Sequence record: OL964735.1
Origin: Escherichia phage T4
Length of the DNA stretch: 64,000 bases
Reading direction: 5' to 3' (one strand)
The position numbers were made by a program, and so were the translations under genes. Position 1 is the stretch's first letter; every line of letters begins with the position of its first letter. Below the pieces are notes generated by a model. It saw only the letters and a program-made list of their open reading frames with translations. It had not been told where the DNA came from and did not search any database. Below, piece by piece: positions 37,757 to 47,119 of this stretch.

Positions 37757-39344
<1,588 letters not shown>

Positions 39345-39371
39345 AATAAAATGGGCCTTGCGGCCCACTCC

Positions 39372-39874
39372 TTAAAAGTATTTTTTAAAACTCATCATAA
39401 CTTTATCATCAACATCATTATCAATCTGTGCAACAAGGTAAGATGACAGTTCTACTTCTTGCGGCGCGGATTGAACATTATCAGAATTAAGATATTCACG
39501 AATCCAAGGATATGGATGTTTAACCGGAGCATCGGTAATTGGGCATGGAAGACCGCACTGTTTCATACGAGATACAGTTAAGTAATCAATAAAGCTCCAC
39601 ATGCTATTTGTATTTAATCCAGGAACATCACCATCTTTAAATAAATGAACTGCCCAGTCTTTTTCCTGGCGGTTAACTTCCATGAAAATATCAACTGCTT
39701 CTTGTTCACACTCTTGGGCAATTTTAACCCATTCATCACCATCAGTACCGGATTGAAGTTGACGAATAATATATTGGGTGCCTTTAAGGTGAAGCTGTTC
39801 ATCACGTGCAATGAACTTCATAATCTTGGCATTACCTTCCATGATTTCCATGTTCTTATGGAAGTTAAAGGTAC
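39372..39874 (-). CDS. nrdB: ribonucleotide reductase small subunit NrdB, exon 2
   Basis: exon boundary inferred from frame, intron ending in G, and restoration of conserved YVSFACTFNF...MEGNAK sequence. Confidence 0.88.
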
Positions 39875-40472
39875 CGTATGTTCGATTGAGCTCGCTAATT
39901 CTCAACCCGTTCTCTTATGAACTGCTGCATGTTACCATGCAGTCCAGACTATATCACAATCCCGGAGGGATTCTCCCCATTTCGAGTCGCTTGACCCTAC
40001 GTCCGAAGACTAGTCGTTGAACCTTGTTTTGCAATTGTCGCCGTGCCATCGTTTATATGTTGATGGTGATAAATCTTTCTTATCACAATATGGACAATTC
40101 AATTGAATTCTATTTGGATTTAATTTACATCTGTCATTATGTTTTAGATAAAATCCAGGACCTTTACCAATGTGACCACAGAAATCACATGTGATTTCTT
40201 TTTGTGCAGGATGGGTCCCGTTCTTAACCATTTCTAATGTTTTTGCTGATGTTCTTTTCTTATGTTCTTCCATCAGAATCTTTAGGTATAGGTCCGTTAG
40301 CATCTATCCAAATTTTTCTATAGTTCAATTGTGCATCCTCTTAAAAGTATAATCATATTTATATTATACTAATTAAAGGTGCAAGCAAAACCTTGGCTGC
40401 TAGTTTTCCATAAAGGACTTTCCAGCAATTAAAGGAGTTTTCGATAAACGTTACCGTTTAAAGGCGCATTTT
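39875..40472 (-). mobile_element. group I intron in nrdB (598 nt) with degenerate homing endonuclease ORF
   Basis: in-frame stop directly after exon 1 U; core shared with td intron (TTTCGAGTC.CTTGACCCTAC); intron ends in G. Confidence 0.85.
40010..40303 (-). CDS. truncated intron-encoded endonuclease (I-TevIII remnant)
   Basis: 97-aa ORF inside intron with CxxC/HxxC zinc-finger-like motifs only; no catalytic domain. Confidence 0.75.
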   Translation of the reverse strand: MLTDLYLKILMEEHKKRTSAKTLEMVKNGTHPAQKEITCDFCGHIGKGPGFYLKHNDRCKLNPNRIQLNCPYCDKKDLSPSTYKRWHGDNCKTRFND

Positions 40473-41136
40473 ACGCAAAAGATACATAAAAACGAATAGC
40501 TTCTAAGGCATTAATAACGTGCAAACAGAGGTAAAGAGATTTCATCAGATCTCGTTTAGCTCTTTGCTCAACGTCTTTATCAGCTAGAATTAGACCTTGG
40601 TCTTTATAATATTCAACCATGTCTTTAGCATTTTCCCATTCACGGGTTTTAACCAAGACATCATCGTAATATCGCCCAATGGACTCAGCACGTTTCATAA
40701 TAGCTTCATCTAATACAATCTCATCAAACACCTTCGATGGATCAGTATAAAGATTTCGCATGATATGAGTATATGAACGACTGTGAATAGTTTCACTAAA
40801 AGTCCATGTAGCAACCCATGTATCAAGGCTTGGGTCTGAAATTAATGACATAAGTACAGCAGATGGCGCACGACCCTGAATGCTATCCAAAAGTGATTGA
40901 TACTTCAGGTTGTTAGTAAAAATATTTTGCTGATACTGAGGAAGCTTATTAAATTGCGCAGCATCCATCATTAAGTTTACTTCTTCAGGACGCCAAAAAA
41001 AACTGATCTGCCGCTCAATGAGTTCTTCAAATACTCGATGTCGTTGAATATCATATCGAGCTAAACCTAATCCAGAACCAAAGAACATCGGTTCATTCAA
41101 AACATCAACTGGATTTGTATTAAAAACTGTACTCAT
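40473..41136 (-). CDS. nrdB: ribonucleotide reductase small subunit NrdB, exon 1
   Basis: exon 1 plus exon 2 total 1167 nt = 388 aa plus stop. Confidence 0.88.
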
Positions 41137-41831
41137 TTAGAATCCTTAAATTTACATTTATCATAATGCCATCTTAAAGCATTGCCTTTATTAACTTTCT
41201 TACCACAGTGCGGGCAAGGTGGATACTCTGCTCCTTGTTTAGTTCTCAAAGAAATCAAATCACGGGTTTCTTTAGTATGAGGAACATCTCTTGTCGGAGA
41301 AATTGTACCATACATCGGATTAAGCACGCCGACTTTAGCAGCAGCTATATTCTTTTTAGCTTCTTCAGTTTTAGGCTTTCTCATCTTTTTCTTAGTTTCT
41401 TCGCTTTTAGCCCTTCCTTTGGTTGCCGCCGATATTTTGTGTTTGGTTTCTTCTGTTAAACGCAGACCTGTTTTCGCTTTTGACATTTTCAGTCTCGTTT
41501 CTTCAGAAATGACCGTACCTTTGCGAAATTGCGAATTTAACTTCTTTGCATGGGCATATATTTTAGAATGAACTTTATAATGACGTTTCTTAGTTCCTTT
41601 CATATTGCACATCATGAAAAATGCGAATATAACAGATTTTACCGGATAAATCTTTGATAAAATAGCATGCGCTATAAAATGCTCTCTAGCTGTTAATTCA
41701 ACTAAATTTTCTTTATCATCAGAACCTCCCATGCATCTAGGGATTATATGATGTGTCTCTTTATATTCGGATAAAGGTTCCCGAGCCTGAGCTCGGGAAA
41801 TTAGGTCGTTATAGATTTTTTGATAATTCAT
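41133..41831 (-). CDS. mobE: HNH homing endonuclease-like protein MobE
   Basis: 232-aa ORF; HHIIPRCMGGSDDKENLVELTAREH HNH motif; wedged between nrdA and nrdB with overlapping start/stop. Confidence 0.85.
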   Translation of the reverse strand: MNYQKIYNDLISRAQAREPLSEYKETHHIIPRCMGGSDDKENLVELTAREHFIAHAILSKIYPVKSVIFAFFMMCNMKGTKKRHYKVHSKIYAHAKKLNSQFRKGTVISEETRLKMSKAKTGLRLTEETKHKISAATKGRAKSEETKKKMRKPKTEEAKKNIAAAKVGVLNPMYGTISPTRDVPHTKETRDLISLRTKQGAEYPPCPHCGKKVNKGNALRWHYDKCKFKDSK

Positions 41832-44095
41832 TACAATTTACACGCTGCACAATCATCGGCTTTAGGAGTTTCTATTTCATAATCATCAGTACCAGAACCA
41901 TCACGGGTATTATGATAATAGAAATTTTTAATGCCATAATACCATCCGTATAGCATGTCATCAATCATTATTGACATTGGAACCTTTCCTTTTGGAAAAA
42001 TCTGCGGGTCATAATATGTATTCGCTGAAGCTGATTGACATACCCATTTCAGCATAATAGCTACCTGCGTAAGATAAGGTTTATTACCTTTCTTAGCTAA
42101 TTTCCATGTATAATCATAGAGGTCTATGTTATGCTCAATATTGGGCACGACTTGATTAAAGGAACCCTCTTTTGATTCTTTAACACTTACCGGTCCACGT
42201 GGAGGCTCGATGCCGTTTGTACTGTTAGAAACTTGGGAAGATGACTCACATGGCATAAGTGCTGATAATGTGCTATTACGGATGCCAAATAGCTTAAGGT
42301 CTTCCCGCAGCGCCGACCAGTCACAAACGTATTTTGGAGCTGCGATTTGGTCAATCTTTTTATTGTACCAGTCGATAGGTAATTCGCCTCGAGACCAACG
42401 AGTGTCTGAATAATATTCGCAAGGTCCTTTTTCTTTGGCGAGCTTAATGGATGCTTTAATGAGTCCATACTGTAATCTCTCAAATAGTTCATGTGTTAAA
42501 TCGTTAGCATCTTCATAAGAAGCAAAGTTACTTGCCAGCCAAGCTGCATAGTTGGTAACACCTACACCGAGGTTACGACGCTTTTTAGCTTTTTCTGCTT
42601 CAGGAACCGGATATCCTTGGTAATCCAACAGATTATCAAGAGCACGAACTTGAACTTCTGCCAATTCATTAATTTTATCTTGGTCTTGCCAGTCAAAATT
42701 ATCTAATACGAATGCAGAGAGAGTACACAATCCAATTTCAGCATCAGGGCTATTCACATCATTTGTTGGAATAGCAATTTCACAGCACAAGTTACTCTGA
42801 CGAATAGGTGCCTTTTCACGAATAAACGGAGTATAGTTATTCGTATTATCAATGAACTGCACATAAATCCTTGCTGTTCCTGAACGTTCAGTCATGAGCA
42901 ATTCAAATAGTTCACGGGCTTTAATACGCTTTTTACGAATATTAGGGTCTTTTTCTGCTGCTTCGTATAATTCACGGAAACGGTCTTGGTCTTTAAAATA
43001 AGAATAATAAAGCTCGCCACCCATTTCATGCGGACTGAACAAAGTAATGTAATCGTTTTTTCCAAAACGTTCCATCATCAAATCATTCAGTTGAACACCA
43101 TAATCCATATGACGAATGCGGTTTTCTTCTACGCCTTTGTTATTTTTCAAAACGAGAAGATTTTCAACTTCCAAATGCCAAATAGGATAATAAGCAGTAG
43201 CAGCGCCGCCACGAATTCCACCCTGTGAACATGATTTAACTGCAGTCTGAAAATGTTTCCAAAAAGGAATAACACCAGTATGGCGTACTTCACCCATGCC
43301 AATCTTAGAACCTTCGGCACGAATCATACCAACGTTAATACCAATTCCAGCGCGTTTAGAGATATATTCAACAATTGAAGCAGAAGCCTTATTGATAGAC
43401 TTCAATGAATCTCCTGCCTCAATAACAACACATGAACTAAACTGTCGAGTCGGAGTACGACAACCAGCCATAATAGGAGTTGGCAATGAAATCTGTCGAG
43501 TAGATACTGCTTCATAAAAACGGATAACATGTTTTAATCTATCAACAGGTTCATCTTGATGCAGTGCCATTCCAATAGTCATAAATGCAAACTGTGGAGT
43601 TTCATAAATTTGACCAGTGGTTTTATCTTTAACTAGATATTTTTCTTTTAATTGCATTGCCCCGGAATAAGTAAATTCCATATCCCGTTCGTGCTTAATT
43701 TTTGATTCTAAAAATGTAATTTCTTCTGCTGAATATTTTGACAATAATTCAGGGTCGTATTTACCTGCATTTACACAATAAGAAATATGGTCAATAAATG
43801 AACGTGGTTCATACTGCCCATAAACATGCTTACGAAGAGCAAACATTAAACAGCGTGCAGCTACATATTGATAATCAGGTTCTTCAACCGAAATAGAATT
43901 CGCAGCAGCCTTAATGACAATAGTCTGAATATCATCAGTTGTCATTCCATCACGGAGATAAGATTTAATATTTTCATATAATTCATAAGGATCTACTGAT
44001 GTTCCTTCAGCTGCCCAAGATAAAACTTTAATAATTTTTTGTGGGTCAAAGCTCTGAGAAACACCACTACTTTTGATAACATTAATTAATTGCAT
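41831..44095 (-). CDS. nrdA: ribonucleotide reductase large subunit NrdA
   Basis: 754-aa ORF. Confidence 0.96.
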   Translation of the reverse strand: MQLINVIKSSGVSQSFDPQKIIKVLSWAAEGTSVDPYELYENIKSYLRDGMTTDDIQTIVIKAAANSISVEEPDYQYVAARCLMFALRKHVYGQYEPRSFIDHISYCVNAGKYDPELLSKYSAEEITFLESKIKHERDMEFTYSGAMQLKEKYLVKDKTTGQIYETPQFAFMTIGMALHQDEPVDRLKHVIRFYEAVSTRQISLPTPIMAGCRTPTRQFSSCVVIEAGDSLKSINKASASIVEYISKRAGIGINVGMIRAEGSKIGMGEVRHTGVIPFWKHFQTAVKSCSQGGIRGGAATAYYPIWHLEVENLLVLKNNKGVEENRIRHMDYGVQLNDLMMERFGKNDYITLFSPHEMGGELYYSYFKDQDRFRELYEAAEKDPNIRKKRIKARELFELLMTERSGTARIYVQFIDNTNNYTPFIREKAPIRQSNLCCEIAIPTNDVNSPDAEIGLCTLSAFVLDNFDWQDQDKINELAEVQVRALDNLLDYQGYPVPEAEKAKKRRNLGVGVTNYAAWLASNFASYEDANDLTHELFERLQYGLIKASIKLAKEKGPCEYYSDTRWSRGELPIDWYNKKIDQIAAPKYVCDWSALREDLKLFGIRNSTLSALMPCESSSQVSNSTNGIEPPRGPVSVKESKEGSFNQVVPNIEHNIDLYDYTWKLAKKGNKPYLTQVAIMLKWVCQSASANTYYDPQIFPKGKVPMSIMIDDMLYGWYYGIKNFYYHNTRDGSGTDDYEIETPKADDCAACKL

Positions 44096-44412
44096 AAGTC
44101 CTCAACTTGAAAATCGTCTTTAAACAATCGGTTAACTATATGAGCTATTATATCACCATGACACGGCTTTGGTTTACATGTGCATCCTAGCCTCATTCCA
44201 CGTAAAGGCTCTAAATGTGCTTTAGTTATTTCTCCGGATTTAATTCGACGTATAAAATCTTTTTTGAATAATTCAATGGCAGCCTCCCGGCTGCCAGCAT
44301 CTTTACCGACGTAATTTCCCCAAAATGTACCGCGGTGAATATTAACATCAAAGTCGGATTTATATTTATTCACTACCCGGCATAGACGGCCCACGCTGGA
44401 ATAATTCGTCAT
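44086..44412 (-). CDS. hypothetical protein (nrdA.1 position)
   Basis: 108-aa ORF overlapping nrdA start by 10 nt. Confidence 0.6.
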
Positions 44413-44641
44413 ATTGTTTTTCCGTTAAAACAGTAATATCGTAGTAACAGTCAGAAGAAGTTTTAACTGTGGAAATTTTATTATCAAAATACTCACGAGT
44501 CATTTTATGAGTATAGTATTTTTTACCATAAATGGTAATAGGCTGTTCTGGTCCTGGAACTTCTAACTCGCTTGGGTTAGGAAGTGTAAAAAGAACTACA
44601 CCAGAAGTATCTTTAAATCGTAAAATCATATATCCTCGCAA
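44366..44641 (-). CDS. hypothetical protein (nrdA.2 position)
   Basis: 91-aa ORF. Confidence 0.6.
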
Positions 44642-44649
44642 TAATAAAA

Positions 44650-44961
44650 TTACACCGCCATCTTTCCTTTAATAGGAGGGTGTGATACATAGTTGTTAAG
44701 AACGAAATCTTTAGGCCTAAGTTTAAGAACATATTTTAATTGTTCTTTAGTAGAAAGATATCGGAATTTATAAGGTAGACCACTTATTACCAGCTCACAA
44801 AGCTCTTTAGGTTCACGCCTCAAAATTTCTTTACATTGTTCTACGTGATTCATATAGATATGAGTATTACCACCAGAAAATATCAAATCCCCTGGAATAA
44901 GATTACACATCTTAGCTACAATATGAACTAACGTAGCATATGACGCAATATTAAACGGTAG
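44650..44961 (-). CDS. td: thymidylate synthase, exon 2
   Basis: exon starts at Leu codon after intron terminal G (44962); junction VDVFLG|LPFNIASYA. Confidence 0.93.
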
Positions 44962-45977
44962 CATTATGTTCAGATAAGGTCGTTAATCTTACCCCGGAAT
45001 TATATCCAGCTGCATGTCACCATGCAGAGCAGACTATATCTCCAACTTGTTAAAGCAAGTTGTCTATCGTTTCGAGTCACTTGACCCTACTCCCCAAAGG
45101 GATAGTCGTTAGGCATTTATGTAGAACCAATTCCATTTATCAGATTTTACACGATAAGTAACTAATCCAGACGAAATTTTAAAATGTCTAGCTGCATCTG
45201 CTGCACAATCAAAAATAACCCCATCACATGAAATCTTTTTAATATTACTAGGCTTTTTACCTTTCATCTTTTCTGATATTTTAGATTTAGTTATGTCTGA
45301 ATGCTTATGATTAAAGAATGAATTATTTTCACCTGAACGATTTCTGCATTTACTACAAGTATAAGCAGAAGTTTGTATGCGAACACCGCACTTACAAAAC
45401 TTATGGGTTTCTGGATTCCAACGCCCGTTTTTACTTCCGGGTTTACTGTAAAGAGCTTTCCGACCATCAGGTCCAAGTTTAAGCATCTTAGCTTTAACAG
45501 TTTCAGAACGTTTCTTAATAATTTCTTCTTTTAATGGATGCGTAGAACATGTATCACCAAACGTTGCATCAGCAATATTGTATCCATTAATTTTAGAATT
45601 AAGCTCTTTAATCCAAAAATTTTCTCGTTCAATAATCAAATCTTTCTCATATGGAATTTCTTCCAAAATAGAACATTCAAACACATTACCATGTTTGTTA
45701 AAAGACCTCTGAAGTTTTATAGAAGAATGGCATCCTTTTTCTAAATCTTTAAAATGCCTCTTCCATCTCTTTTCAAAATCTTTAGCACTTCCTACATATA
45801 CTTTATTGTTTAAAGTATTTTTAATCTGATAAATTCCGCTTTTCATAAATACCTCTTTAAATATAGAAGTATTTATTAAAGGGCAGTCCTACAATTTAGC
45901 ACGGGATTGTCTACTAGAGAGGTTCCCCGTTTAGATAGATTACAAGTATAAGTCACCTTATACTCAGGCCTCAATTA
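44962..45977 (-). mobile_element. group I intron in td (1016 nt) carrying I-TevI
   Basis: intron begins UAAUUGAGGCCUGAG immediately after exon 1 GGU and ends in G; contains GIY-YIG ORF. Confidence 0.93.
45109..45846 (-). CDS. intron-encoded GIY-YIG homing endonuclease I-TevI
   Basis: 245-aa ORF starting MKSGIYQIKN...KVYVGSA. Confidence 0.95.
   Translation of the reverse strand: MKSGIYQIKNTLNNKVYVGSAKDFEKRWKRHFKDLEKGCHSSIKLQRSFNKHGNVFECSILEEIPYEKDLIIERENFWIKELNSKINGYNIADATFGDTCSTHPLKEEIIKKRSETVKAKMLKLGPDGRKALYSKPGSKNGRWNPETHKFCKCGVRIQTSAYTCSKCRNRSGENNSFFNHKHSDITKSKISEKMKGKKPSNIKKISCDGVIFDCAADAARHFKISSGLVTYRVKSDKWNWFYINA

Positions 45978-47119
<1,142 letters not shown>

Follow-up and report, generated by a model that had tools for sequence, protein, structure and literature searches.

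We analysed a 64,000-nt stretch of DNA from Escherichia phage T4 (sequence record OL964735.1), hereafter called the window, in which an ATG-initiated open reading frame (ORF) of 232 amino acids occupies positions 41133–41831 of the minus strand. The ORF region is 100.0% identical over 3801 nt to ten records of the T4 group (T4, T4T, RB55 and RB59), and the T4T annotation places here a single intact coding sequence of 699 nt (232 aa), with boundaries equal to those of the window ORF, under the name mobE and the label 'homing endonuclease'. The PHROGs match of the ORF carries the same label (E = 1.4e-65), and the Pfam domains described below agree with it. [quoted passage not shown] The gene is already known: in the best-studied phage it has a name, an annotation and an experimental characterisation, and its biology was examined by Wilson and Edgell (2009, NAR 37:7110; PMC2790892).

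The neighbourhood reproduces the classical T4 map, in the order td (with the I-TevI intron), nrdA.2, nrdA.1, nrdA, mobE, nrdB (with its intron) and denA. Upstream of mobE lies nrdA (754 aa; 41831–44095, minus strand), in which Pfam recognizes an ATP-cone together with the all-alpha and barrel domains of the ribonucleotide reductase (RNR) large subunit, and whose product ends in ...DCAACKL. Downstream, a 221-aa ORF at 40471–41136 (minus strand) matches the N-terminal part of the RNR small subunit and represents the first exon of nrdB. The group I intron of nrdB contains a truncated I-TevIII ORF of 97 aa (40010–40303, minus strand), as identified by annotation and PHROGs. An Rfam search at the gathering threshold over positions 38500–47000 gave no matches; under relaxed settings a group I intron was matched, below threshold, at 39925–40165, within the nrdB intron. 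The ORF list and Pfam thus bear out a preliminary description of the window, made from its letters alone, that placed an HNH ORF of 232 aa between nrdA and nrdB; all three genes lie on the minus strand, which that description did not state. The same description called nrdA and nrdB essential, which is too strong a word, as T4 with nrd mutations remains viable on normal hosts. Published work terms the two genes functionally critical (PMC2790892, PMC2988022).

Both boundaries of mobE overlap the coding sequence next to it, as had been proposed, and the sequence itself shows each overlap. At the nrdA junction, the plus-strand letters CAT at 41829–41831 correspond to the mobE ATG and TTA at 41831–41833 to the nrdA TAA, such that stop and start codon share base 41831 within the motif TAATG (41829–41833, minus strand). 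At the nrdB junction, TCA at 41133–41135 corresponds to the mobE TGA and CAT at 41134–41136 to the nrdB ATG, and the two codons overlap in the motif ATGA (41133–41136, minus strand).

The ORF appears differently in the older reference record AF158101/NC_000866, which is 99.8% identical to the window: there, two extra single bases, after window positions 41394 and 41477, divide it between mobE (141 aa) and nrdB.1 (83 aa). We considered this two-gene arrangement and rejected it: the extra bases are absent from the window and from all records matching it at 100.0%, and T4T has one ORF. The phages ELT1 and ECO4 also carry an intact 699-nt mobE ORF, at 96% identity.

The MobE protein begins with an HNH catalytic core at residues 21–55 (41667–41771, minus strand), identified by Pfam and by alignment. 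The Pfam HNH profile (PF01844) matches residues 21–44 with 24.6 bits, against a cut-off of 21.4, and 43 homologues sharing 35–76% identity all have H27, H28, N42, H51 and H55. An AlphaFold (AF2) model built from the alignment of these 43 homologues has a mean pLDDT of 86; in it the core consists of two strands (residues 25–28 and 43–46) and a helix (residues 48–61), predicted with pLDDT values of 95–97, and a series of short helices comes after it. Searching the PDB by sequence with MobE yielded a group II intron maturase alone, matched marginally at the HNH motif (E = 0.076); I-HmuI was not among the results, and fold searches with the model did not retrieve I-HmuI or I-HmuII.

The remainder of the protein has the features of a DNA-binding module, although this role is presumed. 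Residues ~106–201 (41229–41516, minus strand) form lysine-rich helix repeats of the NUMOD3 type, recognized by Pfam (PF07460; 46 bits, cut-off 20.4) as well as in the translation, where they take the form xSEETRxKMSxAKxG, and in the model; PF07460 is present in most of the homologues. The earlier remark that the lysine-rich C-terminal half resembles a DNA-binding tail agrees with these repeats and with the composition of residues 101–232, which include 25 lysines (18.9%) and have a pI of 10.1. A CCHC metal-binding knuckle (C206, C209, H222 and C226; 41154–41216, minus strand), invariant in the 43 homologues, completes the C terminus. This knuckle is 48% identical over 23 aa to the zinc-finger repeats of the I-TevIII remnant (pairwise E = 2e-4).

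Expression of mobE depends on its neighbours. The gene lacks its own promoter and is co-transcribed with nrdA, its transcription starting at the nrdA promoters (PMC2790892). Inspection of the sequence upstream of the mobE ATG revealed no Shine–Dalgarno sequence; therefore, translational coupling at TAATG is proposed, and mobE is probably translated by termination–reinitiation at this overlap. The UAAUGA overlap between nrdA stop and mobE start, together with the coupling hypothesis, appears in a 2010 review (PMC2988022). Near the 5′ end of the gene, RNA folding predicts a stem-loop with a 9-bp stem, a 4-nt loop and a short U tract (41778–41799, minus strand; −16.7 kcal/mol, z = −3.0), which corresponds to a weak intrinsic terminator. 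As measured by 3′ RACE and RNase protection, 30–50% of transcripts terminate at this hairpin, which was found in all mobE-containing phages examined and is missing from empty sites (PMC2790892). Owing to the short U tract, a generic terminator scan did not pick up the published terminator. Placed ~30 nt into the gene, the hairpin keeps the level of mobE transcript low.

Signals for nrdB are also located within mobE. The published work places a middle promoter for nrdB in the 3′ region of mobE (PMC2790892). A scan for sigma-70 promoters found promoter-like sites at background frequency (19 found, 15.6 expected), and a MotA-box pattern was used instead because T4 middle promoters do not follow the sigma-70 consensus. 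This pattern matched a candidate MotA-type promoter for nrdB (TGCTTAA, 12 nt, TACAAT) in the 3′ part of mobE at 41302–41326 (minus strand), with the end of its −10 element 165 nt upstream of the nrdB ATG. The Shine–Dalgarno sequence of nrdB, AAGGA, is found in the last codons of mobE (41143–41147, minus strand), and the spacer that precedes nrdB in empty-site phages differs in sequence from this end of T4 mobE. The preliminary description held that the ORF is inserted without disturbing either neighbour, a claim that does not survive the presence within mobE of a terminator acting on 30–50% of transcripts and of the middle promoter (PMC2790892) and Shine–Dalgarno sequence of nrdB. Because this promoter and ribosome-binding site lie inside mobE, the gene would be hard to lose.

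Comparison of the nrdA–nrdB junction in relatives, as the preliminary description had recommended, revealed a site that is more often empty than occupied. A synthetic 'empty' junction was used as a query to sort relatives by the span between the two genes, and class-specific probes were then run over a phage collection of 50,697 records. Empty junctions of the T2 type, with a 51-nt spacer, were present in 373 records, T2 included, whereas the T4-type mobE occupied the site in 19, a T6-type mobE in 50 and an RB3/RB6-type occupant in 57; thus, roughly 126 records are occupied and ~75% are empty. Empty-site alleles are therefore common, and it is not the case that all relatives carry the ORF. The spacer at empty sites, including that of T2, is conserved and measures 51–52 nt. 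A 2005 paper by Sandegren and colleagues reportedly deals with the replacement of mobC and mobE by SegH and Hef.

The three occupants share their position and the N-terminal part of the protein, and differ mainly in the regions that follow. The T6-type MobE (213 aa; T6, HY03 and slur04) is located at the same site as T4 MobE with the same overlaps, and it is almost the same as T4 MobE over residues 1–55 and over the C-terminal ~90 residues, in which the CCHC knuckle lies. Its residues ~56–140, which form the linker and the first NUMOD3 repeats, have diverged; the protein is 19 aa shorter and 78% identical overall. The RB3/RB6-type 'mobE' (243 aa) also sits at the T4 MobE site and is nearly identical to T4 MobE over its N-terminal 61 residues, which comprise the HNH core and the region of the terminator. 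Its C-terminal half, in contrast, is unrelated and contains a NUMOD1 motif, with neither NUMOD3 repeats nor a CCHC knuckle. The RB3/RB6-type occupant is a domain-swapped enzyme, presumably with a different target.

A base-by-base comparison of the junction in 16 phages (9 occupied, 7 empty) showed that the state of the site is associated with the alleles of the flanking genes. NrdA ends in ...DCAACKL in all nine occupied phages and in ...DCSSCKL in all seven empty ones. T4 and T2 are 83–85% identical over nrdB nt 1–200 and 91% identical over the final 100 nt of nrdA, compared with 92–99% further out. The allele association, together with this dip in identity, is the footprint that would be expected of endonuclease-driven co-conversion and target-site divergence.

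The experiments of Wilson and Edgell place the activity of MobE within this divergent region. [quoted passage not shown] What was mapped is a nick and not a demonstrated double-strand break (PMC2790892). An in-frame deletion in the HNH domain (residues 33–62) abolished the nick in vivo and lowered inheritance: in T4 × T2 co-infections, wild-type mobE was inherited at 2.1 ± 0.2 times input, a ratio that dropped to 1.5 ± 0.3 in the deletion (PMC2790892). Inheritance of I-TevIII falls in parallel in this deletion, and the recombination junctions in mobE+ I-TevIII− progeny are located within the first 189 nt of nrdB (PMC2790892). Activity of MobE in vitro was not obtained, as no expression clone of the gene could be made and the protein synthesised in vitro showed none, and the authors left it possible that MobE regulates another nuclease or that it cuts both strands (PMC2790892).

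These published results and the features of the protein are consistent with a pathway in which the C-terminal NUMOD3 repeats and CCHC knuckle, by presumption, bind the conserved DNA that encodes FFWRPEE, and the N-terminal HNH domain would nick the polymorphic stretch adjoining it. Repair by recombination, with the T4 chromosome as template, then copies mobE into the recipient, a step shown genetically. The 3′ end of nrdA, the 5′ end of nrdB and often the nrdB intron with its dead I-TevIII ORF are copied along with it. The I-TevIII intron is in this way a passenger that is mobilised in trans by MobE-initiated gene conversion ('trans homing').

The T4 chromosome itself is probably spared because its nrdB carries different nucleotides at codons 41–45, as the polymorphism at this place suggests. 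The T4 position that matches the T2 nick site (nt 122–126, codon 42) is 41011–41015 on the minus strand, and codons 41–45 read GAG CGG CAG ATC AGT in T4 versus GAA AAG CAG TTG TCA in T2. All three T4-type mobE phages compared have the T4 sequence, and five of the seven empty-site phages have the T2 sequence; the remaining two, EPIMRB01 and HP3.1, carry a T6-like nrdB allele. The T6-type MobE is linked to a third nrdB allele, GAG AAR TCT TTR TCA. RB6, which has the RB3-type occupant, is T2-like in its own nrdB at the T4 MobE nick site, which suggests that the RB3-type enzyme has a different specificity. The association between nrdB allele and MobE type could, however, reflect linkage alone rather than immunity.

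Several other readings of the locus have to be weighed against that of a nicking homing endonuclease. The preliminary description expected cleavage at the homologous intergenic site, whereas the published nick lies within T2 nrdB at nt 122–126 (PMC2790892). A related proposal would have MobE make a double-strand break at the empty nrdA–nrdB intergenic site, such that homing site and insertion site coincide as they do for intron-encoded enzymes. The conserved 51–52-nt spacer at empty sites is in principle a target, and only one strand break was mapped while a double-strand break was kept possible by the authors (PMC2790892). This proposal is nevertheless most unlikely, as primer extension puts the break at nrdB nt 122–126 rather than in the spacer, with the same outcome on a plasmid, the recombination junctions fall within the first 189 nt of nrdB (PMC2790892), and T4 and T2 diverge most sharply at nrdB nt 1–200. 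A different suggestion, raised by the authors themselves, is that MobE is not itself a nuclease: it would bind DNA and supply specificity or regulation, and a second T4 nuclease, guided to nrdB by MobE, would do the cutting. The protein synthesised in vitro indeed had no detected activity (PMC2790892). Against this suggestion stand the five HNH residues, whose constancy in all 43 homologues, even at 35% identity, is an argument for selection on catalysis, the loss of the nick on deletion of residues 33–62 (PMC2790892) and the single-strand nicking of its target reported for the related MobA (PMC2988022). We consider a purely accessory role for MobE highly improbable.

It has also to be asked whether mobE persists for reasons other than mobility. 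The gene might be mainly a domesticated regulatory cassette that keeps NrdA and NrdB synthesis in balance through its terminator and internal promoter, with homing being incidental or historical. [quoted passage not shown] However, about three-quarters of close relatives are without mobE, which is therefore not needed for nrd regulation; its transmission exceeds the Mendelian expectation in a manner dependent on the HNH motif (PMC2790892); and the presence of three endonuclease variants at one site is typical of selfish turnover. We judge domestication of this kind to be unlikely. The contrary view, in which the ORF is a decaying and non-functional endonuclease remnant like the neighbouring I-TevIII, could draw on the split ORF of AF158101/NC_000866, yet that split is due to two extra bases and the ten T4-group records at 100.0% identity read like the window. 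Its probability is practically nil, and it is already refuted by the intact ORF in the independent isolates ELT1 and ECO4 (96% identity) and by the genetic function and deletion phenotype that have been demonstrated (PMC2790892). A selfish element that homes by nicking nrdB is the reading that we retain.

The gene in the window is the one studied by Wilson and Edgell (PMC2790892): sequence, boundaries and flanks are identical, as are the terminator within the gene and the overlap at the nrdA junction, and biologically nothing sets the two apart. Among other enzymes, MobE of Aeromonas phage Aeh1 (Gibb and Edgell 2007, as cited in PMC2988022) resembles T4 MobE in being an HNH enzyme of the mob family that is associated with RNR genes and subject to multilayer expression control. 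According to that account, it is inserted inside nrdA and splits this gene in two, whereas T4 mobE lies between nrdA and nrdB. The Bacillus phage enzymes I-HmuI and I-HmuII share with MobE the combination of an HNH domain with an extended modular DNA-binding part, the nicking of one strand and the co-conversion of flanks (PMC2790892), but are intron-encoded, whereas MobE is free-standing. I-TevIII is likewise of the HNH family, also targets nrdB and has zinc-finger repeats like the CCHC knuckle of MobE. It differs in being intron-encoded and, in its intact RB3 form, in making a double-strand break; the T4 version is a 97-aa remnant whose spread depends on MobE (PMC2790892).

As a discovery the locus has little weight, since even the overlap of start and stop codons is contained in the 2010 review (PMC2988022). 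Its general significance is established: a selfish nuclease gene enters an operon, borrows the upstream promoters and carries the promoter and ribosome-binding site of the downstream gene. The mobE case adds a nick that is able to drive gene conversion, and a working endonuclease that keeps a dead neighbouring intron endonuclease circulating. The present census updates this picture with ~75% empty sites and three types of occupant.

A broader model can be put forward tentatively, with the odds in our judgement against it. The nrdA–nrdB junction may be an arena of three competing alleles, the T4 type, the T6 type and the domain-swapped RB3 type, each with its own target specificity and a matching immunity allele at the 5′ end of nrdB. 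The rare T4 type (T4, ELT1, ECO4 and mogra) would be a recombinant that was retargeted by an altered linker and an extra NUMOD3 repeat, the MobE variants would be able to home not only into empty sites but also into genomes that carry another variant, and EPIMRB01 and HP3.1 would be resistant survivors. Apart from this model, the comparisons suggest two minor leads, namely the domain-swapped RB3-type occupant and the distinct nrdB 5′ allele that is paired with each MobE type.

The HNH homing endonuclease gene mobE (positions 41133-41831 of the window, minus strand) occupies a junction between nrdA and nrdB that holds different but partly related genes in other phages. The T6-type MobE, found in about 50 records and represented by phage T6 (L005:683-1324), is a 213-aa protein that forms a mosaic when compared with the T4-type. 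Specifically, the N- and C-terminal ends are almost the same in both proteins, whereas residues from about 56 to 140 have diverged and the T6-type is 19 aa shorter in this region. The full T4-type is rare: it appears in 19 records, 16 of which are at least 99% identical and are essentially T4 isolates and their derivatives, and the remainder include ELT1, ECO4 and mogra.

A further occupant, the RB3/RB6-type 'mobE', lies at the same site in about 57 records, such as RB6 (L004:698-1429) and Ptacy1496 (L013:700-1431). This protein has only its N-terminal 61 residues in common with T4 MobE, and its unrelated C-terminal half carries a NUMOD1 motif but lacks the NUMOD3 repeats and the CCHC knuckle. 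Because nrdB of RB6 itself reads like that of T2 at the position nicked by T4 MobE, the RB3/RB6-type protein presumably aims at a different target. Two phages whose junction lacks mobE, EPIMRB01 (L007) and HP3.1 (L015), have an nrdB 5′ allele that is T6-like rather than T2-like across codons 34-50. These two may be products of recombination, may descend from phages that once had mobE, or may carry a resistant allele.

The older T4 reference (AF158101.6/NC_000866) contains two extra single bases within mobE, located after positions 41394 and 41477 of the window; the ORF is thereby broken in two, with 141 aa assigned to 'mobE' and 83 aa to 'nrdB.1'. On sequence comparison, nrdB.1 is an annotation artefact, because a single intact 232-aa ORF is read in the window, in all records that match it at 100.0% and in the ELT1 and ECO4 phages. 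A 3.8-kb query has two matching places in resequenced T4 records versus one in AF158101/NC_000866.

The C-terminal CCHC knuckle of MobE (41154-41216) is similar to both zinc-finger repeats in truncated I-TevIII (40010-40303, minus strand), which resides in the adjoining nrdB intron. The pairwise E value is 2e-4, and the common pattern is CPxCxKK...RWHxDxCK. Given that both proteins target nrdB, module exchange between them may have occurred.

The nrdB group I intron itself (39925-40165, minus strand) matches Rfam below the gathering score (35.7 versus 50 bits, E = 5.9e-7), and the td intron around I-TevI (45109-45846) yields no Rfam match at the gathering threshold, likely because the ORFs inserted in these introns break the models. 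Directly downstream of nrdB is denA (endonuclease II; 38934-39368, minus strand), a 144-aa ORF whose translation contains a GIY-YIG-like motif. Together with I-TevI, mobE and I-TevIII, denA brings the number of nuclease-related ORFs in a stretch of about 7 kb to four.
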